64,000 nucleotides of DNA from Gammaproteobacteria bacterium (GTDB lineage: Bacteria; Pseudomonadota; Gammaproteobacteria; VBWC01), in contig JAHFRU010000003.1 in assembly GCA_023266115.1 (NCBI GenBank), positions 65,978 to 129,977 of the forward strand. The letters run 5' to 3'. The position numbers and the translations under genes are program-made. Positions within the stretch are counted from its first letter, which is position 1; each line of letters starts with the position of its first letter. Below the pieces are notes generated by a model. That model saw only the letters and a program-made list of their open reading frames with translations, was not told the origin of the DNA and searched no databases. Positions 4,006-60,076 of the stretch are shown here, in pieces.

Positions 4006-4938
4006 CTACAGGCGATGGCCGAAGTTTTCCTCGAAGCGGTCGTCGAATTCGGCGCGCGTAAACCGGTGGTTTTGCGTGCCGGGGTTTTCAATCTTGATTG
4101 CGCCCATCATCGAGGCGATCCGGCCGCTGGTCTCCCAGTCCATCTTGTTCATCAGCCCGTACAGCAGCCCGGCGCGATAGGCATCGCCGCAGCCGGTCGG
4201 GTCGACCTGGGCGATCGGCGTCGCGGCGGGGATGTCGATACGATGGCCTTCCGCATAGATTTGCGAGCCCCTGGCGCCAAGCGTGACGATCAATGCGTCG
4301 ACCCGTTCGGCGAGTTCATGTGCGGACAGCCCGGTGCGCTGTTCAAGCACCTGCGCCTCGTAGTCATTGACGGCAACCCAGCTCGCTTTGTCGATGAAGT
4401 CCAGCAGATCATCGCCGTTAAACATCGGCAGGCCCTGGCCGGGGTCGAACATGAACGGAATACCGGCGTCGGCGAACTGCCGGGCGTGCTCGATCATGCC
4501 GTCGCGGCCGTCCGGCGCGATAACGCCGATGGTCACGCCGCGCGTATCGGTGATGCGGTTTTCGTGCGAGAAACTCATCGCACCCGGGTGAAACGCGGTG
4601 ATCTGGTTGTCATCCATATCGGTCGTGATATAGGCTTGGGCGGTGTAACTGTTCTTGATCGGCTTGAGGCGCGACATATCGATGCTGTGGGTTTCCATCC
4701 ATTGCGCATACGGCGCGAAGTCGGTGCCGACCGTGGCCATCGGGATGCCATCGCCGCCGAGCAGCGTCAGGTTATAGGCAATGTTGCCGGCGCAGCCGCC
4801 GAACTCGCGGCGCAGCTTCGGCACCAGAAACGATACATTCAGGATGTGGATACGCTCGGGCAGGATATGGCGGCTGAACTGGTCAGGGAACACCATGATG
4901 GTGTCGTAGGCAACCGAACCGCAGATAAGCGCTGACAT
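4006..4938 (-). CDS. PfkB-family carbohydrate/nucleoside kinase
   Basis: Protein from MSALICGSVAYDTIMVF... with GG and DTxGAGD-like motifs (DPTGCGDAYRAG). The internal ATG start at 4938 was chosen over the longer track ORF. Confidence 0.8.
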   Translation of the reverse strand: MSALICGSVAYDTIMVFPDQFSRHILPERIHILNVSFLVPKLRREFGGCAGNIAYNLTLLGGDGIPMATVGTDFAPYAQWMETHSIDMSRLKPIKNSYTAQAYITTDMDDNQITAFHPGAMSFSHENRITDTRGVTIGVIAPDGRDGMIEHARQFADAGIPFMFDPGQGLPMFNGDDLLDFIDKASWVAVNDYEAQVLEQRTGLSAHELAERVDALIVTLGARGSQIYAEGHRIDIPAATPIAQVDPTGCGDAYRAGLLYGLMNKMDWETSGRIASMMGAIKIENPGTQNHRFTRAEFDDRFEENFGHRL

Positions 4939-4975
4939 TGTGTGGGTCTCCAGCCGTTTTCGGGCAATCAGATTG

Positions 4976-8182: not shown

Positions 8183-8578
8183 TCAGTGTGATTCGGATTC
8201 CGCCACCGCGGCATAGGCGTGCGCGTCCAGCAGCTTGTCGAGCTCGCCCGGATTCGACGGCGCAATTTCAAACAACCAGCCATCGCTGTAGGGCGCCTGA
8301 TTGACCGTTTCCGGCGCGTCGGCGACGGTACTGTTGGTCCCGGTGACGGTGCCGCTTACCGGGGCGTAGACGTCGGATGCCGCCTTGACGGATTCGACGA
8401 CCGCGCATTCTTCACCGGCGGCCACTTGACGACCCACCTCCGGCAGTTCGATGAACACCATGTCGCCCAACTGGCCCTGCGCGTGATCGGTGATACCGAC
8501 GCGCACATTACCGTTATCGAGGCGCTGTGCCCATTCGTGGCTCTTCGCGTATCTGAGATTTCCCGGGGTCTTGGTCAT
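8183..8578 (-). CDS. gcvH: Glycine cleavage system H protein
   Basis: 131 aa from MTKTPGNLRYAKSHEWA... with the lipoyl-lysine motif ESVKAASD; RBS GGAGCGA upstream. Confidence 0.95.
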   Translation of the reverse strand: MTKTPGNLRYAKSHEWAQRLDNGNVRVGITDHAQGQLGDMVFIELPEVGRQVAAGEECAVVESVKAASDVYAPVSGTVTGTNSTVADAPETVNQAPYSDGWLFEIAPSNPGELDKLLDAHAYAAVAESESH

Positions 8579-8642
8579 CGTTGTCGCTCCGTACGGCTGG
8601 TAAACAAAGTTTAATACTCTATTGCGGATGAATCTGTGCCCG

Positions 8643-9728
8643 CTACAAACAGGACTGGCCGGCGCGGACAAACGGCGGTTTGATGATGGTTGCGTCCAGC
8701 CGTTTGCCACGTATCTCGACCTCGCAGTCGCCTTTGACCTGCCCGGCGATGCGCGCCAAGGCAATCGATTTGCCCAGCGTAGGCGAAAACGTGCCGCTGG
8801 TGATCTCGCCGACGACCTCGCCATTGACGAATACCTGCTGGTGGCTGCGTAACACGCCCTTGTCATTCAACACCAGGCCGACGAACGTGCGCTGTGGCCC
8901 GCGTTGCCTGCTGATTTCAAGACTGCGGCGGCCGATGAACTCGCGGTCTGTCGGGTCCCAGGCGACGGTCCAGCCCAGCCCCGATTCCAGCGGATGTGTC
9001 GTTTCGTCCATATCGGTTCCATACAGGTTCATGCCGGCCTCCAGCCGCAGTGTATCGCGGGCGCCGAGACCGGCGGGCTTCACGCCGGCCTTCAGCAGTT
9101 TTCGCCAGAAGGCGCTGGCCTGTGTCGCCGGCAGCATGATTTCGTAACCGTCCTCGCCGGTATAGCCGGTGCGGGCGATGATCATGTCGCGTATGCGCGC
9201 GGCACTGAACGGTGTCAGCAACGCGGTCGCGGCGCGCTGCGCCTCGTCGAGAATACCGTGTACGCGTTCACGCGCCGTGGGGCCCTGTACCGCGATCATC
9301 GCGGTGTCGGCACGCTCGTTGACGATAACATCGCGATTTTTCGCCTGCCCGATGATCCACGCGAGGTCCTTGTCGCGTGTCGCGGCATTGACGACAAGCC
9401 GGTAGTGGCGGTCATCGAAGTAATACGTGATCAGGTCATCGATCACGCCGCCGTGATCGTTCAACATGCAACTGTAGAACGCCTTGCCGGACACTTTCAG
9501 CCGGTCGATATTGTTGGCCAGCAATCCGCGCAGGAAACTTTTAACGTCGGCCCCCTCGAGGTCGACGATGGTCATGTGCGATACATCGAACATGCCGGCG
9601 TCGCGGCGCACCTGATGGTGTTCGTCGATCTGCGAACCGTAATGCAGCGGCATTTCCCAGCCGCCGAAATCGACGATCCTGGCGCCGGCGTCCAGATGTT
9701 CCTGATAGAGCGGTGTGCGTTTTCCCAT
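8643..9728 (-). CDS. gcvT: Glycine cleavage system T protein (aminomethyltransferase)
   Basis: 361 aa from MGKRTPLYQEHLDAGARIVDFGGWEMPLHYGSQIDEHH...; the internal ATG at 9728 was chosen. Confidence 0.95.
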   Translation of the reverse strand: MGKRTPLYQEHLDAGARIVDFGGWEMPLHYGSQIDEHHQVRRDAGMFDVSHMTIVDLEGADVKSFLRGLLANNIDRLKVSGKAFYSCMLNDHGGVIDDLITYYFDDRHYRLVVNAATRDKDLAWIIGQAKNRDVIVNERADTAMIAVQGPTARERVHGILDEAQRAATALLTPFSAARIRDMIIARTGYTGEDGYEIMLPATQASAFWRKLLKAGVKPAGLGARDTLRLEAGMNLYGTDMDETTHPLESGLGWTVAWDPTDREFIGRRSLEISRQRGPQRTFVGLVLNDKGVLRSHQQVFVNGEVVGEITSGTFSPTLGKSIALARIAGQVKGDCEVEIRGKRLDATIIKPPFVRAGQSCL

Positions 9729-9794
9729 GGTTCCCGTACCGGTTGGCTCGCCTTTGGTTTCCGTTATTTTTTGCTTTGCTCCGGGGCCGCACAT

Positions 9795-9830
9795 AAAAAA
9801 AGCGACAGACCGGATGCCGTGTCTGTCGCT
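9795..9830 (-). terminator. Intrinsic terminator hairpin of the glycine riboswitch expression platform
   Basis: On the minus strand, GCGACAGACACGGCAUCCGGUCUGUCGC followed by UUUUUUU, between the aptamers and the gcvT start. Confidence 0.55.
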
Positions 9831-10017
9831 CCTCTGTCCGGATACCTGAGAGCTTGAGCCCCTTCGGTGAGCGTCGTCGTGAACCGCGGTTCCGCGAAAC
9901 CTCTCTCCAGAGTCAACATACCCGTGCGGTCCTTTTGCCTGAGCGATTCCGAGCGAGGTTGCGCCTTCGGCGCCCCTGAACACTTTAGCGTAAGCCGGAT
10001 CAGGGGTCTCTCCCACA
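9831..10017 (-). promoter_or_regulatory. Tandem glycine riboswitch (two aptamers) leader of gcvTHP
   Basis: The minus strand contains GGGAGAGACCCC...CGCCGAAGGCGCAA...CUCAGGCAAAAGGAC and CUCUGGAGAGAGG...CACCGAAGGGGCUCAAG...CUCAGGUAUCCGGACAG, the conserved glycine-aptamer core sequences in tandem. Confidence 0.85.
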
Positions 10018-10210
10018 GGGGGATAACGTTGAGCGGGTCACTATACCGGCGGCATCGGAAAAATCCAAGCTGTACGCGATCACGGCGGGTCGGGCGACGC
10101 CGTGGAGCGCAGCGCCTTATCGCGGTCGAATCGGCATAGGTTCCGCTGATTTTCAGACAGATTTCGCCGATAACCTGAATGACAGACACGTACGGTGCCG
10201 GGGGTCGTCG

Positions 10211-10600
10211 GTGACCGACCCGGTGCCCGATCGGAGGTGGCAAATGCGATCGCTGGAAGGCGGTGTTCTGTACCGGACAAGCGGGCCCCTGAAGTCAGGG
10301 TCCTGGCTGGAATCGCTGATTCTATCCGGTTGTCTGCTGACGTCGCTGTTCGCGCTGTCGGCGCCGGCATTCGCTGCGGAGCCTGCCGAGATTGATGACG
10401 TCCTCGAGCCGCGCAACCGGGAGTGGAAGGATGTGCGGCTGGACGGCAGTTTGCGTGTGCGCGGTGTCGAGTTTGGCGACCGGGCCTACATCGGGCAGAC
10501 GAAGGTCGGCGGTAAATGGGGCCTCGGCATCGTCGTGGATCGTGGCGACTACGCCTACGGCGCGGCCAATCAAGGCGTTCTTTTTCTGAAACGATTCTGA
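10211..10600 (+). CDS. Hypothetical small secreted protein
   Basis: ORF with a hydrophobic signal-like segment LILSGCLLTSLFALSAPAFA; no recognisable family; start is ambiguous (10211 or 10244). Confidence 0.35.
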   Translation: MTDPVPDRRWQMRSLEGGVLYRTSGPLKSGSWLESLILSGCLLTSLFALSAPAFAAEPAEIDDVLEPRNREWKDVRLDGSLRVRGVEFGDRAYIGQTKVGGKWGLGIVVDRGDYAYGAANQGVLFLKRF

Positions 10601-10699
10601 CGATTCGCTGTTTCTCGGCCGGCCTGGTGTTGGTGGCGGCGGTTGGACTTCCCGGGGTGCGTTATATACCATCGGCCGAACACTGTTTCTTGACTGCCG

Positions 10700-12346
10700 A
10701 TGACGTTATTCACTGCGATTATCTTCACCACGGGCGCGGTCACGCTGGCACTTGAGTTGCTCGCGTCGCGCATCATGACGCCGTATTTCGGCGTCAGTCT
10801 CTTTATCTGGACGGGAATTCTGTCGATTACGCTGCTGTCGCTGGCGCTCGGCTATTACCTGGGCGGCCGGCTTGCCGTGCGTGCGGCGCAGCGCCCGGAC
10901 TACACGGAGCGGTTACGGTATCTGTTTCTGGGCATGCCGGCGGTGTCCGCCATCAGCATCGGCGCAGCCTGCCTGGTCTATCCGGTGACCTTCCTGCATC
11001 TGGCGAGTTTCAGCCTGGTGTGGGGATCATTTGTTGCGTGCCTGATTCTGTTGTTTGTGCCCTTGGTCACGATATCGGCGATGAATCCCCTGTTGATCGC
11101 GTTGCGCTCGTCCGGGCAGGGCGACCGTGGCGTGGTTGGGGACAGCGGTTCCGGGCTGGTCTTTTTTATCAGCACGGTCGGATCGGTACTGGGCGTCTGG
11201 CTTACGGCGTTTCTGTTTATTCCCAACCTTGCCAACGCGACGTCGGTATTGATGCTCGGCGCTATGTTGTCGAGCATGTCACTGCTGGCCGGTTTGTTCG
11301 CGCCGCAGTTTGGCGGCGGGTTGAAAAAGCGCATGGTGATGATTGCCGTGGTCGGGCTGATGATCTGCGGCGGCATACTCGCGGGCCGGTCGTCGCTGTT
11401 GAAAAACGACCGGGAAATCGTATTCAACAATGCAACCTGGACCGTGGAGAAGGAATATTTGTCGTTATACGGCAATATCAAGGTGCTGGCGCGAACGCGG
11501 TTGATGCCGTCGGGTGCCGGCGCGTCTGGCCCGTATGACCGGCAGATTATTTATTACCAGGACGGCATGGTGCATGGCGTGATCAATCCGCAGGGCGAGT
11601 CACAGGTGGTATACAGCTATGCACTGGAAGGCCTGGCGAAGGCGTTTCTGTCGCCGGGTGATCATGCGCTGGTACTCGGGTTGGCGGGCGGCGTGGTGCC
11701 GATGCGTCTGGCGCGACAGGGCGTAGTCGTGGAGGCGGTTGATATCAATCCGGACTCGGTGCAGGCCGCCGAGGATTTTTTCGGCTACGACGCCGCCATC
11801 GTCAAGACGTACCGGCAGGATGCGCGCAGCTTTATCAATCAATGTACGCAACGCTACGATGCCGTCATCGTCGACCTGTTTACCGGTGATGGTATCCCGG
11901 ATTACCTGCTCACCCGGAATTTCTTCGCTGACATGCGCCAGTGTCTGCGGCACGACGGCGTTATCGTCATCAACGCCTTCACCGTCCCGGAACATTTTAA
12001 GGCGTCGTACCACATGTTCAAAACCTTGCGATCGGTGTTTCGTCACCTGGTGGTGTTTCATGACGACATCCGGGACCGGGATGAGCCGATGCATCTGTTC
12101 ATGGTCGCAACCGACCGCGAAGCCGTCGGGAATATTTCAATTTCGGTCGGCGGTGTCCCGCCGGGGTTGCTGAAGGATCTACAACGTATTTTTGCCGCGC
12201 CCCGGCCGCTAGACCCGGCCATCCTCGCGCAGGCGACGGTGGTGACGGATGAGTTGAATATTTTTCCGATACTTAATCAGGATATCTACATGGCCTACCG
12301 GCGCAAGCTCCTTGAGATCATTCCGCCGGCGTATCTGGTGAACTGA
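10700..12346 (+). CDS. Fused membrane domain / spermidine synthase-like aminopropyltransferase
   Basis: 548 aa; about 230 aa of N-terminal multi-TM region, then a spermidine-synthase-like SAM-dependent fold (VLGLAGGVVP...AVDINPDSV...DAVIVDLFTGDGIP). Confidence 0.8.
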   Translation: MTLFTAIIFTTGAVTLALELLASRIMTPYFGVSLFIWTGILSITLLSLALGYYLGGRLAVRAAQRPDYTERLRYLFLGMPAVSAISIGAACLVYPVTFLHLASFSLVWGSFVACLILLFVPLVTISAMNPLLIALRSSGQGDRGVVGDSGSGLVFFISTVGSVLGVWLTAFLFIPNLANATSVLMLGAMLSSMSLLAGLFAPQFGGGLKKRMVMIAVVGLMICGGILAGRSSLLKNDREIVFNNATWTVEKEYLSLYGNIKVLARTRLMPSGAGASGPYDRQIIYYQDGMVHGVINPQGESQVVYSYALEGLAKAFLSPGDHALVLGLAGGVVPMRLARQGVVVEAVDINPDSVQAAEDFFGYDAAIVKTYRQDARSFINQCTQRYDAVIVDLFTGDGIPDYLLTRNFFADMRQCLRHDGVIVINAFTVPEHFKASYHMFKTLRSVFRHLVVFHDDIRDRDEPMHLFMVATDREAVGNISISVGGVPPGLLKDLQRIFAAPRPLDPAILAQATVVTDELNIFPILNQDIYMAYRRKLLEIIPPAYLVN

Positions 12347-12411
12347 GCAGCACCCGAAACGCGACGGACCGCTCCATGGGCGGCCCGTCGAGTCAACCCC
12401 GCTGGTGAGCG

Positions 12412-12801
12412 CTAGTTGGCGATATTTTTGTTCAGACGGTCGGTCCAGTACTGGGCGTACACCATGTTCTGCGGCAACCCGAACCACCCTTCGGTGTAGG
12501 CGACGGCCAGGAATTGCTGCGCTTCCGGTACGCCGTTCTCCGCGGCGCGCTGGTACCAGGTCAGGGCCTTTTCCTCGTTCGCTTCGACGAACAGGCCGCC
12601 GTGGTACATCAACCCGAGGTTAAACTGCGCGCGAGGATCGCCGCTTTCCGCCAGCGACTGCCAGGTTGTGAATGCGGCGCCGTAGTCTCCCTGGAGTGCC
12701 GAGGCGGTGCCTTCTCCATAGGTAGTGCCGGCGACGGAAACCGACGCGGCGGCGAACAGGGAAGCTGCCAATAAGCACTTAATCGAACTGGTGAATTTCA
12801 T
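12412..12801 (-). CDS. Sel1/TPR-like repeat protein, secreted
   Basis: From MKFTSSIKCLLAASLFAAASVSVA (signal peptide) with Sel1-like repeats (AQFNLGLMYHGG..., AQQFLAVAYTEG); strong RBS GGAGAGGA. Confidence 0.75.
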   Translation of the reverse strand: MKFTSSIKCLLAASLFAAASVSVAGTTYGEGTASALQGDYGAAFTTWQSLAESGDPRAQFNLGLMYHGGLFVEANEEKALTWYQRAAENGVPEAQQFLAVAYTEGWFGLPQNMVYAQYWTDRLNKNIAN

Positions 12802-12899
12802 ACATCCTCTCCGGATTACAAGCCACAAATTCGGTAATGTGGTTATCGGACGGAGATCACGACGAATGTGTGATACCGATCACAAATCGGTAAGTTTTG

Positions 12900-13299
12900 C
12901 TGGCCAATCAAGAAGTCCGGGGGGCTTTCGCCAGCACAGAACCGGCCATCAGGCGGGAGTATCTCCGGACCGTGATCTGACCCGCCAGCCTAGCGATACC
13001 CTGCACGAGAATTGAGAACACTACGGCGGCACCACACAGGAACGTCCGCGGGGTTGACATGCAACGCGCCGGCGAACAGCAAAAAGCTCGGCATGCCCTG
13101 CATCAGCGTTTCGCTGAAATCGATTTCACGCAGCAATTGTCGCGTCTGATCTTCACTCGCAAACCCGAATTGGTCAAGGGCGATCAGGCTGAGCGAGAAG
13201 ACCGGGTGCGATCAGCGTCAGGCCGCTATAGCGGTGATTGACCCAGGTGAACAGCGCCGACAGCGTGATGAGGATGGCAACGATCTCGAACAGATTCAT
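12900..13299 (-). pseudogene. Remnant of a CPA1/NhaP-type Na+/H+ antiporter gene (frameshifted and 3'-truncated)
   Basis: Minus-strand frame 1 gives MNLFEIVAILITLSALFTWVNHRYSGLTL... then a stop. A second frame gives SLSLIALDQFGFASEDQTRQLLREIDFSETLMQGMPSFLLFAGALHVNP. A third frame gives GAAVVFSILVQGIARLAG. Together these align to the N-terminal roughly 130 aa of NhaP-type antiporters; only about 400 bp remain. Confidence 0.6.
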
Positions 13300-13309
13300 T
13301 CGCGGCGGA

Positions 13310-14527
13310 TCACCGCAACGGCTGTTGCGCGAGCCGTGGCAGATCGCCGTGCGTGCCCATGGCGTGCCGCGCGAGGAAATTTTTTACCGGTACGGCCTTG
13401 TCCGTGACCGTCAGGCCGACGTTGCGTAGCCATGCCACCGGCGCCAGCGATGTGCCGAACAACCGCTTGAAGCCATCCATCGTTACCATGGTCAGCAGGT
13501 TGTCGCCCTTGCGCCAGCGCTCGTAACGGCGCAGCACATGTATCGCGCCGAGCTCCTTGCCGGCCCGGTGCGCGTCGCACAACACCTCGGCCAGTGCTGC
13601 GGCGTCGAGCAAACCAAGATTGACGCCCTGACCCGCCAGCGGATGGATGGTGTGCGCCGCATCACCGACCAATGCGATACGCGGACGGACGTATTGCGTG
13701 GCGGTCTGCAGATGCAGGCCGAACGCGGCACGCGGCCCGACGCCGCTCACCACCCCGAGGCGCCGGTCGAAGGCACGGGTCAGGGCGTCGCGAAAATCGG
13801 CGTCATTCAGCGCGACAAGCTGGTCGGCATGGTCAGGCGATGTCGACCAGACGATGGAGCTCGCGCCGTTGGCGAGCGGGAGAAACGCCAGCGGCCCGGT
13901 TGGCAGAAACCGCTGCCAGGCTGTTTCGCGATGCGGCAGCCCGGTCGTTACTGTGGCGACCATGGCCTTCTGCCGGTATTCCCAGCCGCGTGTGCTGATG
14001 CCGGCCAGCTCGCGCACGCCCGATCGCGCGCCGTCGGCGCCGACGACCAGGCGCGTCTCGATACGACGGTTGTCATCGAGCGTGAGGACGGCGTGCGACT
14101 CGCTGACGGTGAGTGCGGTCAGCCTCGCCGGGTGGATCATGTCGATGTTATCGAACGCGCCGATGCGTTGCGTCAGTGCGCGCACGATCACACGGTTTTC
14201 GATGATATGGCCAAGCAACGGTTCGCCGATATCGGCACTGTTGAAATGAATCTCGCCGCTGCCGCCGGCATCCCAGACATGCATGTCTCGAAACGGGCTA
14301 ATACGCTCATCGGCCATGGCCTGCCATGCGCCCAGCGACTCGAAGATATTCTGCGACGCGCTTGTAATCGCCGACACGCGCAGATCGAATGCGTCGCCTT
14401 GCCAGGCGGGCGGCGGATTGGCGTCCACCAGCGCTACGCGCAAGCCGCTGCCGCCCAGTGCGCAACCGAGTGTCGCGCCGACCATGCTGCTGCCGATGAT
14501 AACGACGTCGTAGCGTGCCTGAGTCAT
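13310..14527 (-). CDS. ubiI: FAD-dependent ubiquinone biosynthesis hydroxylase (UbiH/UbiF/VisC family; UbiI-like by position)
   Basis: 405 aa; MTQARYDVVIIGSSMVGATLGCAL... Rossmann fold and GDAAHTIHPLAGQGVNLGLLDA motif; lies downstream of ubiH as in the E. coli pepP-ubiH-visC operon. Confidence 0.8.
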   Translation of the reverse strand: MTQARYDVVIIGSSMVGATLGCALGGSGLRVALVDANPPPAWQGDAFDLRVSAITSASQNIFESLGAWQAMADERISPFRDMHVWDAGGSGEIHFNSADIGEPLLGHIIENRVIVRALTQRIGAFDNIDMIHPARLTALTVSESHAVLTLDDNRRIETRLVVGADGARSGVRELAGISTRGWEYRQKAMVATVTTGLPHRETAWQRFLPTGPLAFLPLANGASSIVWSTSPDHADQLVALNDADFRDALTRAFDRRLGVVSGVGPRAAFGLHLQTATQYVRPRIALVGDAAHTIHPLAGQGVNLGLLDAAALAEVLCDAHRAGKELGAIHVLRRYERWRKGDNLLTMVTMDGFKRLFGTSLAPVAWLRNVGLTVTDKAVPVKNFLARHAMGTHGDLPRLAQQPLR

Positions 14528-15753
14528 AGCCGCAGGCCTCTGGCGAGCCGGGTCTGGCGGCCGGACAGTCCCATGGTATGGCGCGTCAGCAGATGTTTCG
14601 CGGCCGGCAATATGTCAACGGCGAGCAACCCGAGGTTACGTGCCCAGGCGATTGGCGGTAATGGATTGGAGAAAATGCGTACCAGGCTGTCGGTGAACGC
14701 GATGACCCGCTGATGATCGCCGCGCCGCCACTGCGCATAGCGTTGCAGCACCGCCTGAGCGCCCGGGTCACCGCCACTGGCTGTCGTCTGCGCGACAATT
14801 TCGGCGAGCACCGCGACATCGCGCAGACCGAGATTGAACCCCTGGCCCGCCACGGGGTGCAGTGTATGTGCCGCGTTACCGATCAAGGCAACGCGCGATC
14901 TGACGTGCGCGGCGACACGATTCAGCGACAGCGGATAGGCGTGACGGGTGCCGATGCGTTCGAACCGGCCGAGCCGGTAACCAAAGCGCTGTTGCAATGC
15001 ATCCAGGAACTCTACGTCGCCGAGGCCCATCAGCGTGTCGACGTCTTCATTGCGCGCCGTCCAGACCAGCGAGCAGCGGTTGTCCGTCATCGGCAGTAGT
15101 GCGAGCGGGCCGCTATCGGTGAAGCGTTCATAGGCGGTGCCAAGGTGCGGCCGACCGGGGGTGACGTTGCTGATAATCGCTGTCTGACCATAATCCCAGC
15201 GACGTGCGGGTATGTCGAGTAAGCGGCGCACTGCCGAGTTGGCGCCGTCGGCGCCGACCAGCAACAACGTGGTGACGGTGCGTTCGGCGCCATTGTCGTT
15301 GATAGTCACAGTGGCGGCCTCACGGTCAACCTGCAACCCGGCCAGTGTCGCCGGGCTGAGCAGGTCGATGTCCGGCCGGGCGGCGAGCATAGCGCCGAAC
15401 AACGCTCCCAGTATGCGGTTTTCGATCACGTAGCCCAATGCATCGACCCGTTCACGTGCCGCGTCGAGACGCGTGATGCCAAAGCGGCCGCGGTCGGAGA
15501 TATGGATGTTGCGTATCGGTGTCGCGTGGTCCGCAAGCGGCTGCCATAGCCCCATGGTTTCGAAGATACGCCGCGTGCCATAGGCAAGGGCGATCGAGCG
15601 GTCATCGTAGCCGGGTTGGGAGGCGGCGCCGAACGGTACCGCCTCGATAACGCCGATCCGTAACTGCCGGTCGCGCAGCGCGCACGCGAGACTGGCACCG
15701 ACCATGCCGCCGCCGACCACCAGGATGTCGTAGTCCGTCTTGCGCGGCGTCAT
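14524..15753 (-). CDS. ubiH: 2-octaprenyl-6-methoxyphenol hydroxylase
   Basis: 409 aa; DYDILVVGGGMVGASLACAL...GNAAHTLHPVAGQGFNLGLRD; operon position. Confidence 0.85.
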   Translation of the reverse strand: MTPRKTDYDILVVGGGMVGASLACALRDRQLRIGVIEAVPFGAASQPGYDDRSIALAYGTRRIFETMGLWQPLADHATPIRNIHISDRGRFGITRLDAARERVDALGYVIENRILGALFGAMLAARPDIDLLSPATLAGLQVDREAATVTINDNGAERTVTTLLLVGADGANSAVRRLLDIPARRWDYGQTAIISNVTPGRPHLGTAYERFTDSGPLALLPMTDNRCSLVWTARNEDVDTLMGLGDVEFLDALQQRFGYRLGRFERIGTRHAYPLSLNRVAAHVRSRVALIGNAAHTLHPVAGQGFNLGLRDVAVLAEIVAQTTASGGDPGAQAVLQRYAQWRRGDHQRVIAFTDSLVRIFSNPLPPIAWARNLGLLAVDILPAAKHLLTRHTMGLSGRQTRLARGLRL

Positions 15754-52248: not shown

Positions 52249-53427
52249 ATGAAGCGCAAATTTCGTTCGTGGTATTTCGGCCGTGCGATTCTTGCGACGG
52301 CGGCAACGGTGCTTGGCTCGACGGCGCAGGCCCAGGAGCCCGGGGCGCAGGCGGCGTCCAGCGCATTCAATCCGGCCTTGAGTCTGATTATGGACGCGAC
52401 GTTCGCGAGTTTCGATCAGAAACCGGCGACGTATGCAATTCCCGGCGTGGCGCTCGCCGACGACACCGGGCCTGGCGAGGAGGGTTTCAGTCTTGGCGAG
52501 TCCGAGTTGGTCGTCAGCAGTAACGTCGATGACAAATTCTACGGGTTGTTGACCGCCGCGTTGAAGCCGGAGAATGCCGTCGAGGTCGAGGAGGCATTCA
52601 TCGAAACCACCGGTCTGGGTTATGGCGCGACCATCAAGGCCGGGCGCTTCTTTTCCGGTATTGGCTATTTGAACGACCAGCATGCCCATGTCCGGGATTT
52701 TGTCGACACTGCGTTGCCGTATCGCGCGATGCTCGGGAATCAGTATCGCGACGACGGTGTGCAATTGCGAGTGGTCGCGCCGACCGATCTGTTCATCGAG
52801 GTCGGCGCGGAGATGTTCCGCGGCGATGGTTACCCTGCCGGTGGCGCGGCGAACGACGGCAAAGGCACGAAATCGGTATTCGTGCATGCCGGTGACGACG
52901 TCGGCGCCAGCCACAGCTGGCGCGCCGGGATTTCACGGCTGAATACCCGGGCGATCGATCGCGAAACCGGGACCACGCCCGATCTGTTCACCGGCGACAG
53001 TAACGTGACGATCGTCGATCTCCTGTGGAAATGGGCGCCGAACCGTAATCCGTCGGAACATTACCTCAAGTTGCAGGCCGAGTACCTGCGGCGCGACGAG
53101 GACGGCGCGTTCAATACCATCGCCTGCGACACCCGACAGCGCGGCTGGTACACGCAGGCAGTCTACCAGTTCATGCCACGCTGGCGCGTTGGCCTGAGGC
53201 ACGACGCGGTAGCGGCCGACGATGTGCCGGTGGCGCTCGCTGCAACGGCGCTGGACAACCAGCAACACAAACCGGAACGCAGCTCGTTGATGGTCGATTT
53301 CTCGAACAGTGAGTTCAGCCGGTTGCGCCTGCAGTACAACAATGACAACTCCCGGCCAGTGAGCGATACGCAGTGGTATGTGCAGTATCTGATGAGTCTG
53401 GGCGCGCACGGCGCGCACAAATACTAG
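52249..53427 (+). CDS. Outer-membrane beta-barrel protein (porin-like; metal-uptake associated?)
   Basis: Signal peptide, alternating amphipathic strands and a C-terminal aromatic ...GAHGAHKY; RBS GAGGAAA. Confidence 0.65.
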   Translation: MKRKFRSWYFGRAILATAATVLGSTAQAQEPGAQAASSAFNPALSLIMDATFASFDQKPATYAIPGVALADDTGPGEEGFSLGESELVVSSNVDDKFYGLLTAALKPENAVEVEEAFIETTGLGYGATIKAGRFFSGIGYLNDQHAHVRDFVDTALPYRAMLGNQYRDDGVQLRVVAPTDLFIEVGAEMFRGDGYPAGGAANDGKGTKSVFVHAGDDVGASHSWRAGISRLNTRAIDRETGTTPDLFTGDSNVTIVDLLWKWAPNRNPSEHYLKLQAEYLRRDEDGAFNTIACDTRQRGWYTQAVYQFMPRWRVGLRHDAVAADDVPVALAATALDNQQHKPERSSLMVDFSNSEFSRLRLQYNNDNSRPVSDTQWYVQYLMSLGAHGAHKY

Positions 53428-53438
53428 GAGCGTGGATC

Positions 53439-54344
53439 ATGCGATACATAATGAATGGTTGTCTGGTATTGCTGTTGACGTCGGCCATCTCGTGCGCGCA
53501 GGCGGCAGTGAAAGTTTTCACCTGTGAGCCGGAATGGGCGGCTTTGGTGATGGAGCTGGGTGGTGCGCAAGTCGATGTGTATGCGGCGACGAATGGTCTG
53601 CAGGATCCGCATCGCGTCGAGGCGCGCCCGAGCCTGATTGCAAAACTGCGGAACGCCGATCTGCTGGTGTGTACCGGCGGCGGGCTGGAGGCTGGCTGGC
53701 TGCCGGTGTTGTTGCGTCAGTCCGGTAACGCACATGTACAGCCGGGAACCCCCGGATATTTCGAGGCCGCGAGCCACGTGACCATGCTTGAGGTGCCGGC
53801 GACGGTGGATCGCGCGATGGGGGATGTGCATCCGGAAGGCAATCCGCATATTCATGTCGATCCACGCCGGATCGCGCGGGTTGCCGAAGCGCTTGCCGGG
53901 CAGCTGGCGGAGATCGACCGTGACCACGCGTCGCTGTATCGCCAGCGTTATGCGGATTTCTCGTCGCGCTGGCAGGCGGCCATGGTGCGTTGGGAAAAAA
54001 TTGCCGCGCCGTTGCGCGGCGCGGCCATCATCGCGCATCACAAGGACTGGGTCTATTTTGCCGACTGGCTTGGGCTGCGCGAGGTGGCGATGCTGGAACC
54101 GCTGCCGGGGTTGCCGCCGACCGTTCTGCATCTCGCAGAGCTGAAAGACCGCTACAAGGCGGGTGACGTGCTGGCGATTATTCGTACGCCCTATCAGGAC
54201 GCGAAGGGCTCCGAATGGCTGAACCGGCAGACCGGTATTCCGGCCGTTGTGCTGCCGTACAGCGTCGGCGGCACGCCGGCCGCCACCGATCTGTTCGCGT
54301 TGTTCGATGAATCGTTACGCATGTTGCTCGAGCTGAAACGGTGA
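53439..54344 (+). CDS. Metal (Zn/Mn) ABC transporter substrate-binding protein, ZnuA/TroA-like
   Basis: Signal peptide plus TroA fold with metal-ligand His (GDVHPEGNPHIHVDP); RBS AGGAG. Confidence 0.85.
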   Translation: MRYIMNGCLVLLLTSAISCAQAAVKVFTCEPEWAALVMELGGAQVDVYAATNGLQDPHRVEARPSLIAKLRNADLLVCTGGGLEAGWLPVLLRQSGNAHVQPGTPGYFEAASHVTMLEVPATVDRAMGDVHPEGNPHIHVDPRRIARVAEALAGQLAEIDRDHASLYRQRYADFSSRWQAAMVRWEKIAAPLRGAAIIAHHKDWVYFADWLGLREVAMLEPLPGLPPTVLHLAELKDRYKAGDVLAIIRTPYQDAKGSEWLNRQTGIPAVVLPYSVGGTPAATDLFALFDESLRMLLELKR

Positions 54345-55093
54345 ACGCCGCAGCGCTGGATATCGGCGTACTCGGTCCGGCATTGCTCGCCGGCTTGCTG
54401 GTGACCGCAACGCACGTGCCGCTTGGCCAGCAGGTGCTCAAACGCGGCATTATTTTCATCGACCTTGCAATTGCGCAGATCGCCGGTCTCGGTCTGATGG
54501 CAGCGTACACATTCGGCTGGGAGATCGGCGGCTGGCACATGCAGGCCACGGCATTTATCGCGGCGCTCGGCGGTGCATTGTTACTCGCCTGGACCGAGCG
54601 GCGCTGGCCACAACTGCAGGAGGCATTGATCGGCACGCTGTTCGTGCTGGCGGCAACCGGTGCCATCCTGTTGCTCAGCGCGAATCCGCACGGCGGCGAG
54701 CACTTGCGGGATCTGATGGTCGGTCAGATACTCTGGGTCAGCTATGAGCAACTCTGGCCGGTCGCGATCCTCTATGCGGTGTTGCTGGCGCTGTGGTTCG
54801 GCGGGCGCTGTTACCAGCGCACCTTGCCGTTTTACCTGATCTTCGCGCTGGCCATCACCGCGTCCGTGCAGCTGGTCGGCGTGTTTCTGGTGTTTGCCAC
54901 ACTGATTGTTCCGGCGATGTTTACCAGCCGTCTCACGAGCCAACGGTTGCTGGCGGGATACCTGTTGAGTTCGTTCGCCTATGGCGCGGGGTTGGTCGCG
55001 TCCGCGTTATCAGACCTGCCGAGCGGCGCGCTCATCGTCTGGAGCCTGGCGGTGTTGGCGGTTGCCGGCGGAATGGTGATCAGACGGACGTAG
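54341..55093 (+). CDS. Metal ABC transporter permease, ZnuB-like (ABC-3)
   Basis: 250 aa polytopic; GTG start overlapping the SBP stop codon; no cognate ATPase gene is adjacent. Confidence 0.85.
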   Translation: MNAAALDIGVLGPALLAGLLVTATHVPLGQQVLKRGIIFIDLAIAQIAGLGLMAAYTFGWEIGGWHMQATAFIAALGGALLLAWTERRWPQLQEALIGTLFVLAATGAILLLSANPHGGEHLRDLMVGQILWVSYEQLWPVAILYAVLLALWFGGRCYQRTLPFYLIFALAITASVQLVGVFLVFATLIVPAMFTSRLTSQRLLAGYLLSSFAYGAGLVASALSDLPSGALIVWSLAVLAVAGGMVIRRT

Positions 55094-55430
55094 CTGCGGC
55101 GCGGCGAAAACGGGTCATCGGATGAAACACGCGGCGACAGTGCCGGTAGCGCGGTCGGGCGGATTATCGGATCGATGCGCGCCGATGCCCGGGGTGTAAC
55201 TGTTGCGGTGATCGACGGCTGGCATCTGAACGCGTATTGTCGCTCGTCGGGGTGAACCGCGGCGGTTGACCGGGCATTGTTACCCGATGGCGCCTGTCGT
55301 TCGGTTATCCTGCGAATGTATCGGCTCCCCGGAGCCATTGAATTCCCGCCTCTTAATACTCCCTTAATGATGATCCGGTAATCTACACGGTCTCACCCAC
55401 CGCCGTGGCGTGAGGCGCCGCCGCACGGAT

Positions 55431-55458
55431 GGAACCTTTTCGAACCGGGGATCGTGTA
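55431..55458 (+). promoter_or_regulatory. Putative ECF-type promoter (GGAAC-N17-CGT) upstream of the ECF sigma gene
   Basis: GGAACCttttcgaaccggggatCGTGTAA lies 6-10 nt before the sigma ATG, implying a very short or leaderless transcript. This is a motif match only. Confidence 0.3.
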
Positions 55459-55463
55459 ATTGA

Positions 55464-56036
55464 GTGATGGGGAATATTCTGAAATTTAGTGATCGAGCGA
55501 CGGAGCGCGTGCGCTTTGAGGCGTTGTTACGTCCGCACATGGCCCGGCTGTTTAAACTGGCCTGCCGGTTCACCGGTAATGTCCCGGATGCCGAGGATCT
55601 GGTACAGGATCTGCTGATCAAGCTTTATCCGCGCTGTGTCGAGCTCGAGAAGCTCGAGCAGCCGGCGCCATGGCTGGCGCGGGTGATGTACCGGATGTGG
55701 GTCGACCAGCGGCGACGTTACCACCGGTCGCCGGTCATCTTTGCAGAGGACCTGGTTCAATTCGCGCAAGCCGATGCCGCAGTCAACCACGTTGGTGCTG
55801 TTTCGGCCGACTGTCCCGCCCAGCGCTATGAGCGCGAATATTCCCGGCGGCGGTTACAGCAGGCCCTGTACGACTTGTCAGACGATCACCGGACGGTGGT
55901 ATTGATGCACGATGTTGAAGGTTACTCGCTGAACGAAATCGGCGATATTCTGGATTGTGCCGTGGGTACGGTGAAATCGCGGCTGCACCGCGCCCGCGCC
56001 TGTCTGCGGCAATGCCTCGACGATGGAACCTTTTGA
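55464..56036 (+). CDS. ECF (sigma-70 family) RNA polymerase sigma factor
   Basis: Region 2 (DAEDLVQDLLIKLY) and region 4 (LNEIGDILDCAVGTVKSRLHRAR). Confidence 0.9.
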   Translation: MMGNILKFSDRATERVRFEALLRPHMARLFKLACRFTGNVPDAEDLVQDLLIKLYPRCVELEKLEQPAPWLARVMYRMWVDQRRRYHRSPVIFAEDLVQFAQADAAVNHVGAVSADCPAQRYEREYSRRRLQQALYDLSDDHRTVVLMHDVEGYSLNEIGDILDCAVGTVKSRLHRARACLRQCLDDGTF

Positions 56037-56073
56037 CCGGTCTGCTCGTGTTAACAGGCAGGAGGATGCAACG

Positions 56074-56751
56074 ATGAACTGTGATGCGACAATCCGCGAT
56101 CTGGACGAATTTCTGGACGGTACGCTGCACCGGGAAAGCAGTGCTTCCATTCAGCTACATGCCAACAGCTGCATGGCCTGTCGCGGTCTTCTGGAGCGCG
56201 GGCGGGCGCTGCGCGACGCGCTGCGCGATCTGCCTGTCCCGGCCGTCGATCCGGGATTCATGGAGCGTGCCTTCACGCAGGCCAGGCAGCGGCATCAGCA
56301 AAAAAGAACGCTGGCGCGCCGCTGGACCTATGGCGCTGGCGGCGCGCTGGCGGCGGGGTTGGCGCTGTTCGTGGCGACCACCATTATGTTCCCGGGCCCG
56401 GCCGACAACAGCCGCGACCTGTCGGTGATCACCGTCGCACTGGCAGACCGGGCGGATGTCCGTGTTGTGGTGCACTCGACGGCCGATCTTCAGGACGCGA
56501 CGTTTACGGTGAGCCTGCCGGATAACCTCGAGCTGAAGGGCTTTCCCGGGGCACGCGTGATCCGCTGGGATGGACGTCTCAACAAGGGCAAGAACCTGCT
56601 GGTATTGCCGGTGATTGCGCACGGACCGGTGGCAGGAGAGTTAACGACACTGGTTGAACATGAGCACAGGAGCAAGGCGTTTCGTATGAACGTGACGACT
56701 GATGGCTATATCAAATCCATCAGTACGGAACGTATCAAGGTAATGATGTAG
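56074..56751 (+). CDS. Anti-sigma factor, zf-HC2 type, single-pass membrane
   Basis: HANSCMACRGLL zinc-finger motif, TM segment GGALAAGLALFVATTIMF and a periplasmic domain; RBS AGGAGGA; overlaps the sigma gene end. Confidence 0.8.
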   Translation: MNCDATIRDLDEFLDGTLHRESSASIQLHANSCMACRGLLERGRALRDALRDLPVPAVDPGFMERAFTQARQRHQQKRTLARRWTYGAGGALAAGLALFVATTIMFPGPADNSRDLSVITVALADRADVRVVVHSTADLQDATFTVSLPDNLELKGFPGARVIRWDGRLNKGKNLLVLPVIAHGPVAGELTTLVEHEHRSKAFRMNVTTDGYIKSISTERIKVMM

Positions 56752-56770
56752 CGAGCAACAGGAGAAAGCG

Positions 56771-57238
56771 ATGAAGATTTCAAGAGCGATGTGTGTGTTG
56801 GCGACGTCCCTGGCATTTGTTGTCCCGGCGGCAAACGCCGTCGACCGGGATGATCTCGATGTAACCATGGAGGTCATGGATCACGACATGAATGCGGATG
56901 ATTTCATGAACACGATCGAGCTGCCGGAGGCAGCATCGGAACGTGCCCGCGACAGCTCGCAGAGCGGCCTGTCGACCGCCAACGAAGCGCGTGATCGCGA
57001 ACATGGTGGCGATGGTGCACGTGACGGCGACCGCGCTGATAGTCGTGACGACCACGCGTCGGGTGACGTTCGGGACGGCTCCGAAGACCGGTCTGACGAT
57101 ATTCGCAGTGCGTCAGGCGACAGGCGTGATGACTCGGCTGACCATGCCGATGGCGTCCGGGACGAGTCGGCGATCCGGGCGGACGAGATCCGGAGTAATC
57201 TCAAGGACAGCTCCGCTGATGCGCACGCTGACGACTGA
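56771..57238 (+). CDS. Secreted acidic low-complexity (D/R/S-rich) protein
   Basis: Signal peptide MKISRAMCVLATSLAFVVPAANA, then repeated RDxSxD / DGxRD units; predicted to be disordered. Confidence 0.55.
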   Translation: MKISRAMCVLATSLAFVVPAANAVDRDDLDVTMEVMDHDMNADDFMNTIELPEAASERARDSSQSGLSTANEARDREHGGDGARDGDRADSRDDHASGDVRDGSEDRSDDIRSASGDRRDDSADHADGVRDESAIRADEIRSNLKDSSADAHADD

Positions 57239-57435
57239 TTCGTGAATGTTGGTTCGTTAGCGACGTATGTCAGAGCACGTCAGCCACGACGCACAAGGCC
57301 TTTCCTCAATCGGGAAGGGCCTTGCCTGTGCCGGCCGCGGCAGTACGCCCGTTCGGAGAATGCGATCTCATAATCACCAGGGAGGAGGGCTATGCAATGC
57401 AGGCAGTCACGATATGTATTGCCCGGCCATAAAGG

Positions 57436-58761
57436 ATGTTTCAGTACACCAGTCGATTGCCACGTGTTTTCCCGGTTTTGTTGTTAGTCTTCGCGATTCA
57501 GCTCCCGCTCTGCGGAGAGGCCGCTCCGAGTAGCCTTGAGCAGGGGGTGTCCGCGCTGCGGGCGGCGGATTATCACGCCGCTGTCCGCTACCTCGAGCAG
57601 GCGCGCGCCGCCGGGATCGATACCGCCGGCCTTCATTACAATCTGGGAGTCGCCTATTACCGGCTGGAGCGCTATCGCGACGCGGAAGCGGCCTTTGCCA
57701 AAGTGGCGCGGACGCCAGAAATGGCGGCACTGGCACACTATAACCTTGGCCTGGTGGCGGCCGCACAACAGGACACGCGCAAGGCCGAACGGCTGTTTGA
57801 TCAGGCGCTGAAGGAATCGGATTCTGCAAAGCTCTCCGCGTTGGCAGCGAGTCAGCTGAAACGGATACGTCGGGAAGATCCGGTCCGCCGTAACGGTTTT
57901 CTGGAATCGTTGAGCGGTATCGTCAGCGGCGAGGTCGGATACGACGACAACGTTACGCTCGATGCCAACGACTTAAGCCTGGCGACAGGAAAAGACGATA
58001 CCTATCTGTCGCTGTTCTTGTACGGCGACGGAGTGATCGCGAAGAACCTCGATAGCACGGTGCGCGCCGACGCCAGTCTCTACTCCGTCCGATACAACGA
58101 CCTCGGCAGCTATAATCAGGATGATCTTGAGGCAGGTATCGGATTCGAGACGGCGAAATCCGGCTGGAATCTGGATGCAGGGGTCCGTCTCGGAGTGACA
58201 TATCTGGACGGCAACAACTTCACTCGCGCGGAAATAATTCGCCTGCAGGGCAGCCGCAAGCTGTCCGAACAACAGACGCTGCGACTTCGCTACGAGGTCA
58301 GAAGAATAGACGATATGGATGCGGCCTACGCCTATCTCGCCGGCTGGCGCCAACAGCTCGGTGCGGACTCCATCTGGAAGGACGGCGGCAAGCGGTTGCG
58401 TGTTGGCTATCGGCTGGAATTAAATGACCGCGAAGACCTGTTGTCGCCGCGTTTCACCAGTTACTCGCCCACCCGCCACAACCTGCGGGCGCAGGGCGTG
58501 CTTCCGGTTTCAGAGAAGCTTGATGCGGTGCTTGAACTTCAGTATCGATACAGTCGATACAACGATGCCAACGCACTGCCGGACGGAAGTTTTGTTACCC
58601 GCGAGGAGCATCGTTATCGCGCCATCGCCAAAGCCGTTTATGCGTTTAACCGCAACACGGATATGGCGTTGGAATATATCTACACGAAGAACGATGCGAA
58701 TCTTGCTGACAAGAATTACACCGATAACCAGTATTCATTGAACATATCGTATCTTTGGTGA
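57436..58761 (+). CDS. Outer-membrane protein with N-terminal TPR domain and C-terminal beta-barrel (Slam/DUF560-like architecture)
   Basis: Signal peptide; TPRs (AAVRYLEQARAAG..., HYNLGVAYYRLERYRDAEAAF..., HYNLGLVAAAQQD...); then about 290 aa of alternating beta-strands ending ...YSLNISYLW. Confidence 0.7.
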   Translation: MFQYTSRLPRVFPVLLLVFAIQLPLCGEAAPSSLEQGVSALRAADYHAAVRYLEQARAAGIDTAGLHYNLGVAYYRLERYRDAEAAFAKVARTPEMAALAHYNLGLVAAAQQDTRKAERLFDQALKESDSAKLSALAASQLKRIRREDPVRRNGFLESLSGIVSGEVGYDDNVTLDANDLSLATGKDDTYLSLFLYGDGVIAKNLDSTVRADASLYSVRYNDLGSYNQDDLEAGIGFETAKSGWNLDAGVRLGVTYLDGNNFTRAEIIRLQGSRKLSEQQTLRLRYEVRRIDDMDAAYAYLAGWRQQLGADSIWKDGGKRLRVGYRLELNDREDLLSPRFTSYSPTRHNLRAQGVLPVSEKLDAVLELQYRYSRYNDANALPDGSFVTREEHRYRAIAKAVYAFNRNTDMALEYIYTKNDANLADKNYTDNQYSLNISYLW

Positions 58762-58958
58762 TGACTGTCCGGCCAGAAACCGCTATCGAGTTCAAATGGC
58801 CCCTTTGTTGATTTTGGCCGTTTCAGCAAGATAATTTTCCGGGCGATCAAATGAAAACAGGAAGGAGAGGCTCCTTCCTGTTTCAAGGGATGGCTTCTTA
58901 ACGGCTTCGATGACACGTGTCGCGGAAATGCGGTCATCGCGCTATCGATGCCGGCTCG

Positions 58959-59253
58959 TTATCGGTGGCGGCCGCGACGATTGCGGTCGTTGGTTGTGCC
59001 ATGATGATCCGGGCCGACATCCGGACCGGTACTCGGGCCTGTGCCCGGACCAACATCCGGGCCGACATCCACACCATTGTTAGCCTTAGGAACGTTCTGA
59101 CCGTTGGCGAAGCTAAACGCGTGGCCAGTGGCGCGTGCCGGGTTCCGTCGCCTGGCCGGGCGCGCCGGCCTGCGAACCGAACGCATTACCGGCATTCGCC
59201 GTACCTACGGCAAACATCGCACAAACGCCCGCTGCAATTAACGACTTCTTCAT
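58959..59253 (-). pseudogene. Small secreted DVGP-repeat protein gene, apparently frameshifted
   Basis: Strong RBS GGAGATGA then MKKSLIAAGVCAMFAVGTANA signal peptide. The frame stops after 46 aa; the +1 frame continues ...GHAFSFANGQNVPKANNGVDVGPDVGPGTGPSTGPDVGPDHHG.... Confidence 0.4.
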
Positions 59254-60076
59254 TATCATCTCCTGATGTTTCAAAACAGTACCGCCCATCATACGGCCCC
59301 GACCCACTGACGCGGATATCCCCGTCAGAGGAACGGCGCATGTGAGCACCTGACAAGCATAACGGGGCGATCGAGACAGAATTCTTTCACCCTCCCCGTG
59401 GAATCACGGGAACCGACGCGTTAATACACCCGCTAGTGCACCGCGCAAACTCATGATCCGCGCTTGGACAAGCAATAACCACGCCCAATTACAGGTCGGT
59501 TGTCCGGTCAGTGGGTTAGTGGCTAATCGTGTCGACGCAGTGGTTGTTGTGCGCCAAAAGTGTCAAGTCTATCGACGTTTTTAGAGATACCGGTCGCGAG
59601 TATCGGCGGCGTGATTCGGATCGCAGCCGGCTGCGCCTGCTCATAAACGGCGTAGAGAGCGCAGAAATGCAATGAACACCCGGACAAAACGATTGCGGCC
59701 GCTTCAGAACGACAAAAAGGTCGCGATGTTTGCGGCGTTTGGATCGATGGCGATTATCCTGCCGGAGGCATGACGACGTTGTTCGCCATGCCTCCGGCCG
59801 ATCCGGACGGCAATCTTGCCGGACTTGATTTGATGATGTTTCGGTTCATGCCATAGAGATATCTGATATTCGCCTGTCCGTGCATCGTTGCACGATATTT
59901 CACCGACGATTCGCGTAGCGGCGCGACTGGCGTTTTCGAGTTCGCTCCGGAACACCCGCTGTAACCGTTACTCCCCCGAATAAAGCCCTGGTCCAGCGAC
60001 CCGAAACGTTGCAGAATACACCCAGGTCCGGATCACTATTCGCTGAGCCGATTGAACTCGCCGCGCCATCACGGAC

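Follow-up and report, generated by a model that had tools for sequence, protein, structure and literature searches.

A conserved four-gene locus with an ECF sigma factor, a zinc-finger anti-sigma factor, a small secreted protein and a tetratricopeptide-repeat outer-membrane barrel

Extracytoplasmic function (ECF) sigma factors constitute a major class of bacterial signalling proteins, and for most groups the signal and the sensing parts are obscure. In the rpoE-rseA-rseB(-rseC) and algU-mucA-mucB operons the sigma gene is followed by genes encoding a single-pass anti-sigma factor and a secreted periplasmic protein, and the sigma factor autoregulates its own operon. In the RcsF-OmpA/BamA-IgaA surveillance system the sensor is the lipoprotein RcsF, which makes use of general porins and passes its signal to a phosphorelay. 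The Bacteroides protein Dma1 is a single chain in which an anti-sigma domain is combined with a disordered periplasmic region and an outer-membrane barrel, and its discoverers found nothing similar outside Bacteroidota (PMC10927553). The outer-membrane proteins of the Slam/type 11 secretion systems (T11SS) combine a periplasmic tetratricopeptide repeat (TPR) domain of about 140 residues with a 14-strand DUF560 barrel (bioRxiv 10.1101/2020.01.20.912956). The locus described here is found at positions 55431-59260 of a 64,000-nucleotide stretch, in the following called the window, of contig JAHFRU010000003.1 from a gammaproteobacterium. It is a real cluster of four genes, encoding an ECF sigma factor, an anti-sigma factor, a small secreted protein that we call the partner, and an outer-membrane barrel protein. 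The initial annotation had suggested a conserved, uncharacterised envelope system of five genes; neighbourhood comparisons bear this out for the four genes, which are co-conserved, while the fifth, supposed to encode a DVGP-repeat peptide, does not belong.

The region contains four consecutive plus-strand genes, as annotated, and one small convergent open reading frame (ORF). The sigma gene (55467-56036) is followed by that of a single-pass zinc-finger anti-sigma factor of 225 residues (56074-56751), with a zf-HC2 match and a family-specific periplasmic domain. Next comes the partner gene (56771-57238), encoding 155 residues with a signal peptide, a conserved core and an acidic D/R/S-rich tail, and last the gene of the 441-residue outer-membrane protein (57436-58761), which has a signal peptide, three TPRs with a capping helix and a predicted 14-strand barrel ending in YLW.

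The loci compared were the window, four metagenome or genome contig loci and 21 contig loci drawn from one genome per species, each encoding a full-length barrel homologue and referred to by L numbers. The last 21 were found with an 11-sequence alignment. Homologues of the sigma and anti-sigma factors are encoded directly upstream and on the same strand in 23 of the 25 assessable loci, the window included; in L014 the contig end cuts the locus. Clustering by BLAST placed sigma homologues at the same position in 22 of 25 loci, which the window brings to 23 of the 25 assessable ones, and such homologues are present in nearly all loci of the promoter scan described below as well. The partner gene adjoins the barrel gene in all 26 loci. 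It is present as two tandem copies in L005, and in L023 the order of the four genes is permuted. A profile hidden Markov model built from the first set of partners found the partner directly 3' of the anti-sigma gene in 29 independent loci. Altogether the four genes are co-conserved in about 50 independent loci with unrelated flanks, and their grouping is far beyond chance. When all flanking ORFs were clustered, no other family was common to more than five loci, and the module therefore consists of these four genes and nothing else. The hosts are mostly Gammaproteobacteria, from both cultured and uncultured lineages (Marinobacter, Alcanivorax, Thiohalorhabdus, Thiohalophilus, Ectothiorhodospiraceae, Acidiferrobacterales and Thiohalomonadales), but the module is also found in two metagenome-assembled genomes of Desulfobacterales. 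A sigma/anti-sigma pair is here locked to two unannotated envelope families, one being a TPR protein with a 14-strand barrel (about 1,300 clusters) and the other a small secreted protein that lacks a Pfam model.

Both kinds of parts, the ECF sigma/anti-sigma pair and the TPR-barrel protein, are known, but their combination is new, as are the two accessory families and the layout with an internal promoter. Full-text literature searches found no account of this gene set, in line with the initial view that the combination was undescribed, and the main text of the ECF re-classification paper describes no group with such a gene context. Dma shares the parts list, and the parts list only: an anti-sigma domain, an inner-membrane helix, a disordered periplasmic stretch, an outer-membrane barrel and a cognate ECF sigma factor. 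Homology between the two would not be expected. In Dma all parts belong to one polypeptide, the barrel has 8 strands and the sigma factor is of the ECF21 group, and Dma has been reported from Bacteroidota only, while the mainly gammaproteobacterial module has three separate proteins and a barrel with a predicted 14 strands and TPRs. Each of the three genes has its own start codon, and two of the products have their own signal peptide. The anti-sigma factor of the module further differs from Dma in being of the zinc-finger type with what is modelled as a folded periplasmic domain of its own. The gene order sigma factor, single-pass anti-sigma factor and secreted periplasmic protein is the same as in the rpoE and algU operons, and autoregulation by the sigma factor, as predicted here, would be another common feature. 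Unlike in these operons, the partner has no homology to RseB or MucB, the strongest of the predicted autoregulated promoters is internal and precedes the anti-sigma gene, and a dedicated outer-membrane barrel gene is present. Cell-surface signalling of the FecI/FecR/FecA type was considered and rejected, since the anti-sigma factor belongs to the zf-HC2 type, the barrel protein combines 14 predicted strands with TPRs, and no Pfam match to FecR or a TonB receptor was obtained.

The ORF of the sigma factor spans 55464-56036, with the ATG at 55467 or the GTG at 55509, which would give 175 residues, as the likely start. The protein matches Pfam Sigma70_r2, r4_2 and Sigma70_ECF as well as the NCBIfam sigma70-ECF model (85.9 bits, cut-off 42.9), and the nearest solved structures are those of SigH, SigW and SigE. 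The anti-sigma factor has a zf-HC2 match with an HxxxCxxC motif, one membrane helix and a periplasmic domain. It was originally given as a 242-residue ORF starting at 56023, which is too long; the conserved start is the ATG at 56074, which is preceded by an AGGAGG ribosome-binding site and supported by the homologues and by gene calls. Residues C3, H29, C33 and C36 are invariant in the alignment, and a profile of the N-terminal part matches the anti-sigma domain of RsiW at 7e-9. Judged from this RsiW-like domain, the anti-sigma factor is probably released through regulated proteolysis, as in the rpoE and algU systems. The periplasmic part has no family match, but it contains an invariant W...L..GxNxLxLP motif. 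In an AlphaFold2 model made from a six-sequence alignment the N-terminal domain is helical, with predicted local distance difference test (pLDDT) scores of 80-90, and residues 119-209 form a β-sandwich of about seven strands (pLDDT 64-78). When this model was used in a Foldseek search only weak matches to immunoglobulin- or macroglobulin-like folds (Ig/MG-like) were found, and nothing stronger. The two proteins thus have what is expected of an ECF sigma factor and a class I zinc-binding anti-sigma factor: sigma regions 2 and 4 only, the HxxxCxxC motif, a single transmembrane helix and adjacent genes. The autoregulation typical of such pairs, acting through a promoter with GGAAC at -35 and CGT at -10, is suggested by two promoter sequences, P1 and P2.

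The regions around the sigma and anti-sigma genes have in common a motif built like an ECF promoter, GGAACCTTTT-N12-CGTGTTA. P1 is located 5' of the sigma gene (55431-55462, plus strand; -35 GGAAC at 55432-55436, -10 CGTGTAA at 55454-55460). P2 (56025-56056, plus strand) has its -35 GGAAC at 56026-56030, overlapping the last sigma codons, and its -10 CGTGTTA at 56048-56054. The P2 motif is found in 19 of 22 loci, 20-30 nucleotides 5' of the anti-sigma start, where it is either intergenic or overlaps the last codons of the sigma gene, the reading frame differing between loci. It is kept whatever the frame or coding status, so what is conserved is the DNA, not a peptide. P2 scores 36.1 bits against a weight matrix, and P1, which was outside the training set, scores 25.8 bits against a matrix built from the other sites. 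No other site on either strand of the 64-kb window reaches 12 bits. Sites equivalent to P1 are found 5' of the sigma gene in L005, L007, L021, L027, L028 and L056. The matrix has no match in 10 unrelated control loci, and about 380 kb of related loci contain only two matches outside the sigma and anti-sigma positions, both in Alcanivorax. An independent scan of metagenomes, using only the DNA pattern with 19 specified bases, returned 42 loci, 40 of which belong to the module: in 36 the pattern is at the P2 position, followed in order by homologues of the anti-sigma factor, the partner and the barrel protein where the contig extends, while in four it is 5' of the sigma gene or of the gene preceding it. 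The two remaining loci are unrelated.

No ECF promoter was found 5' of the barrel gene in 51 loci. Most loci have a stable hairpin between the partner and barrel genes, in many cases with a U tract as in an intrinsic terminator. In the window this is a GC-rich stem-loop with a 13-bp stem (57294-57324, plus strand, found by RNA folding) in the 197-nucleotide spacer; it has no U tract here, and an Rfam search of 55000-60000 found nothing. Since P2 precedes the anti-sigma gene, while the barrel gene is preceded by a hairpin and no ECF promoter, the sigma-dependent unit is predicted to consist of the anti-sigma and partner genes, and the barrel gene is taken to be expressed by read-through or from another promoter. 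The position of the sigma pair had initially suggested that the partner and the barrel are induced by an envelope signal; judged from the DNA, sigma control seems to hold for the anti-sigma and partner genes through the conserved promoter, while the barrel gene has no such promoter of its own.

The same promoter also occurs in front of other genes. In Alcanivorax L007 the ECF motif is found at 5095 (minus strand) and 8364 (plus strand), before two flanking paralogous operons (genes at 1-4942 and 8479-14894) whose products have DUF6160 or FilA-like N-termini, as in a putative pilus system. These operons are likely to be extra regulon members in that lineage. In the soil loci L074 (518-1638), L058 (95-1246) and L062 (1280-2431) the motif precedes a REC-HD-GYP gene just 5' of the sigma gene, assigned by eye from the sequence as resembling a cyclic di-GMP phosphodiesterase, which hints at a link to cyclic di-GMP signalling. 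With the promoter in front of both kinds of genes, outputs beyond the module are likely.

The mature part of the partner in the window is strongly charged, with 39 D+E and 16 K+R residues, a net charge of -23 and an isoelectric point of 4.2, and it has no lipobox. It has no Pfam or NCBIfam match at E<=0.1 and no PDB match. The conserved core of the family comprises about 75 residues, with DLDVTMxV(I/M)(D/E) followed 8-12 residues on by h-x-x-IELP, where T is invariant and L-P nearly so, and continues with GLxxANxAR and, in many members, GRDFGQSVSE; in the window it reads DLDVTMEVMD...TIELPEAAS...GLSTANEAR. The rest of the protein varies between lineages. In the clade of the window and in other marine and halophilic lineages the tail is of low complexity, often with tandem repeats, and usually strongly acidic, with net charges of -20 to -66. 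In Marinobacter, in L019 and in the soil clade from the promoter scan the partner has only about 80 mature residues, which are conserved throughout and neutral to basic, and the acidic tail is missing from the soil clade. The short, non-acidic orthologues show the acidic disorder to be a clade-specific elaboration that does not define the family. The label of an acidic, disordered secreted protein given to it by the initial annotation accordingly suits the window copy, but not the family, since the soil-clade members are short and slightly basic.

Some of the tails consist of long perfect or near-perfect tandem peptide repeats, with units such as DSRDDAN, EEALEEAQSAK, SDNASEAAAAA and MDRETERDNESE. 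Such tails are found in L016 (5201-5827), L012 (4888-5646), L010 (1718-2230) and L077 (6730-7356), one of them spanning an assembly gap, and the repeats suggest that the tails vary rapidly in length.

The structure of the 441-residue outer-membrane protein was modelled with AlphaFold2 at a pLDDT of 91.4. In the model residues 29-146 form helices and residues 159-440 contain 14 strands as assigned by DSSP, and the predicted barrel has short periplasmic turns and longer outer loops. About 86 full-length homologues were found in a word-index search, and a profile search gave 1281 clusters (50% identity) at E<=1e-30; the best 150 of these are all full length, with 408-463 residues, save one of 723. 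This one, P0140, has three tandem TPR modules before a single barrel, and it was rejected as an informative fusion because the extra length is only repeated TPR modules. The only names given to these proteins in their sources are 'tetratricopeptide repeat protein', 'hypothetical' or 'putative clumping factor A-like'. Two of the TPRs have an invariant asparagine at the equivalent position (N69 and N103), a pattern that would be compatible with binding of an extended peptide. A strongly basic lumen suited to a polyanion was also considered for the barrel, and rejected when the lumen-facing residues of the modelled window protein turned out to comprise 19 K+R and 19 D+E.

The initial annotation saw a resemblance to the Slam/DUF560 translocators (PF04575 SlipAM and PF24575 TPR_Slam), and as far as architecture goes the model agrees: the module shares with Slam a TPR domain of about 120-140 residues, here about 120, a barrel of 14 predicted strands and a neighbouring gene for a signal-peptide protein. 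Membership of the family is another matter. The full-length window protein has no PF04575 match at E<=0.1, and its barrel alone has none even at E<=10. Among its relatives 13 of 25 match at E<=10, the best at 1.1e-5, but the matches are below the cut-off and involve the last strands only; P0021, for instance, scores 16.2 bits (cut-off 22) over profile positions 211-285 only. These relatives match BBP2_2, OMP_b-brl and Porin_4 about as well as SlipAM. Further differences from Slam are that the partner lacks the C-terminal 8-strand barrel of Slam cargo (the TbpBBD/hemophilin-like domain), that no TonB-related gene is conserved in the flanks, and that the module comes with an ECF sigma/anti-sigma pair. 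In Pfam searches the window protein has TPR matches and a C-terminal match to BBP2_2 (PF10082), which for the barrel alone reaches 24.4 bits (cut-off 23.7) and covers only positions 324-374 of 378. Although BBP2_2 is the most frequent weak Pfam match, found in 16 of 25 members, identity with the BBP2_2/EpsL porins was rejected, since the match is partial, TIGR03014 and TIGR03016 score far below their cut-offs and no exopolysaccharide genes are located nearby. The layout with N-terminal TPRs and a C-terminal barrel is shared with these porins and with BcsC, PgaA and PelB, but barrels of the BcsC/PgaA/PelB type have 16-18 strands and long TPR arrays, while the module protein has 14 predicted strands and no synthase or glycosyltransferase neighbours. 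A Foldseek search of the PDB gave generic barrels, BcsC having the best E-value (4e-12) at a template modelling score (TM-score) of 0.38, while the 14-strand barrels OmpG and CymA reach 0.55-0.67.

The interpretation we prefer, at a probability of roughly 0.4, is that the four genes form a self-contained, self-regulated ECF signalling module with an envelope-spanning sensor. The zinc-finger domain of the anti-sigma factor would keep the sigma factor at the inner membrane, while the partner would control the periplasmic β-sandwich of the anti-sigma factor, its N-terminal core with two amphipathic strand-like segments docking on this sandwich. The partner may also be engaged by the periplasmic TPR domain or by the lumen of the 14-strand barrel. 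A change in the outer membrane could then shift the position of the partner and leave the anti-sigma factor open to proteolysis, and the freed sigma factor would transcribe more anti-sigma factor and partner, resetting the system, in addition to lineage-specific outputs. The acidic repeat tail of the window clade might be an add-on serving as a spacer, as a cation-sensitive element or as a surface-exposed part. A bolder version is rather unlikely as a whole: here the inner-membrane anti-sigma factor, a small, partly disordered secreted relay and a dedicated TPR-barrel would form a connection from the cell surface to the ECF sigma factor that needs no TonB, and the acidic tail of the marine proteins would be threaded through the barrel as a surface-exposed sensor. 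In concept the module would be analogous to RcsF, also a small secreted sensor with a disordered segment: an outer-membrane barrel engages or threads this sensor, and where that fails the sensor signals to a regulator in the inner membrane. The module differs in having a partner that is not a lipoprotein, a dedicated barrel and an ECF sigma factor as its output.

Several observations lead us to favour signalling. The four genes are co-conserved, P2 is kept at the DNA level and leads to the module in the pattern-only scan, and the anti-sigma and partner genes lie next to the promoter, ahead of the hairpin and of a barrel gene that lacks an ECF promoter. The partner appears to be co-transcribed with the anti-sigma gene from P2, in some lineages the sigma factor seems to act on further targets, and the Dma anti-sigma factors provide a precedent. 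What is conserved in the partner is a small core, as opposed to a long polymer; both this core of about 75 residues and the tail-less soil orthologues argue against bulk export of a polyanion as the general function. Furthermore, evolutionary distances within the partner motif track those of the periplasmic domain of the anti-sigma factor best (partial r 0.35, permutation p 0.0005), with lower values for the TPR domain (0.26) and the barrel (0.23) and a non-significant 0.14 for the cytoplasmic domain of the anti-sigma factor. A sensor made up of the barrel and the partner, if real, would be a TonB-independent signalling route from the outer membrane to the cytoplasm in Proteobacteria, with the Dma anti-sigma factors as its closest parallel. 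The module is carried by cultured Marinobacter and Alcanivorax, and the promoter is a ready reporter, so the question is directly testable.

Other observations weigh against this interpretation. The mirror-tree signal just mentioned is weak and confounded by evolutionary rates common to periplasmic proteins, and the overall pLDDT of 61 makes the anti-sigma model one of low confidence. A conserved C-terminal motif was looked for in the partner sequences and none was found, and a simple two-ended tether is unlikely because the partner has no such docking motif. TPR-barrel proteins of known function, such as Slam, BcsC and PgaA, are exporters, and hypervariable repeats in a tail are a typical trait of secreted or surface proteins. 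Finally, L017 and L018 have the partner and barrel genes but no adjacent sigma/anti-sigma pair, showing that these two can occur as a pair on their own.

The repeat tails and these two loci speak for an export module being the output of the sigma factor, an explanation we consider doubtful but the most serious of the rivals. The TPR-barrel would here be a Slam/T11SS-like or curli-like translocon that recognises the N-terminal motif of the partner and secretes or displays it, the cargo being a disordered polyanion in the window clade, and the sigma pair would only regulate production. The Slam-like modelled architecture and the weak SlipAM and TPR_Slam matches of some relatives speak for this, as does the design of the partner, with its signal peptide, conserved N-terminal motif and variable tail of low hydrophobicity, often built from tandem repeats. 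The hairpin 3' of the supposed cargo gene would yield more cargo than channel, and the invariant asparagines of the TPR domain could serve to bind an extended peptide. If so, the barrel would stand for a new branch among the Slam-like translocons, and the signal on its cargo would be of a new kind. It is, however, not a member of PF04575; the partner lacks the 8-strand cargo domain seen with Slam, there are no TonB-receptor neighbours, and the soil-clade partners are short, conserved throughout and not acidic. Nor does the barrel gene have the ECF promoter that drives the gene of the proposed cargo, and the partner motif co-varies more with the anti-sigma domain than with either the TPR domain or the barrel.

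A looser coupling, with the partner as a periplasmic stress protein or co-regulator like RseB, CpxP or Spy and the barrel as a co-inherited porin or polysaccharide channel, would agree with the rpoE-rseA-rseB-like gene order, with the predicted co-transcription of the partner and anti-sigma genes, with the weak matches of the barrel to BBP2_2/EpsL-type porins and OMP_b-brl, and with BcsC and general porins being the top Foldseek matches. It is nevertheless quite improbable, as the partner adjoins the barrel in every one of the 26 loci, including the permuted L023 and those where the sigma gene is missing, which is hard to explain if there is no direct functional link; in addition, no polysaccharide synthase or glycosyltransferase is conserved nearby, and the partner has no homology to RseB, CpxP or Spy.

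The small convergent ORF downstream of the barrel gene was initially annotated as a fifth gene, encoding a small secreted DVGP-repeat peptide. There is a signal-peptide ORF on the minus strand (59252-59113), and the DVGP repeats do correspond to a real 12-bp tandem repeat (5.3 copies, 59007-59070), but the ORF stops after 46 residues and the repeat is in another reading frame. In L041, the closest relative with about 88% protein identity, the corresponding gene (8839-9147) is intact and encodes a secreted Gly/Asn/Pro-rich protein of 102 residues. Relative to this the window copy (58959-59252, minus strand) has a 2-nucleotide deletion, and the C-terminal halves of the two products are entirely different; the window copy is either a pseudogene or the result of an assembly error. 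Among all the loci compared the gene is present in the window and L041 only. It was rejected as a member of the system, being frameshifted, found in the closest relative alone and not preceded by an ECF promoter.

Upstream of the module (52249-55093) the window encodes an unannotated 392-residue signal-peptide protein with only a weak BBP2 porin-like match (E 0.005), followed by ZnuA-like and ABC-3 permease genes; the gene calls show no adjacent ATPase gene. A functional tie between the module and the ZnuA/ABC-3 genes was rejected because the arrangement is kept in the closest relative alone. Some of the other loci display minor variations. An ORF resembling a group II intron-type reverse transcriptase/maturase, assigned by eye, is found upstream of the partner-barrel pair in L018 (3930-4777), and in L071 and L075 about 1 kb separates the partner and barrel genes, leaving room for an inserted gene. 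In the metagenome contig L056 (4901-10566) a partner-barrel pair is located immediately upstream of a complete module with sigma, anti-sigma, partner and barrel genes, which looks like a tandem duplication of the envelope pair.

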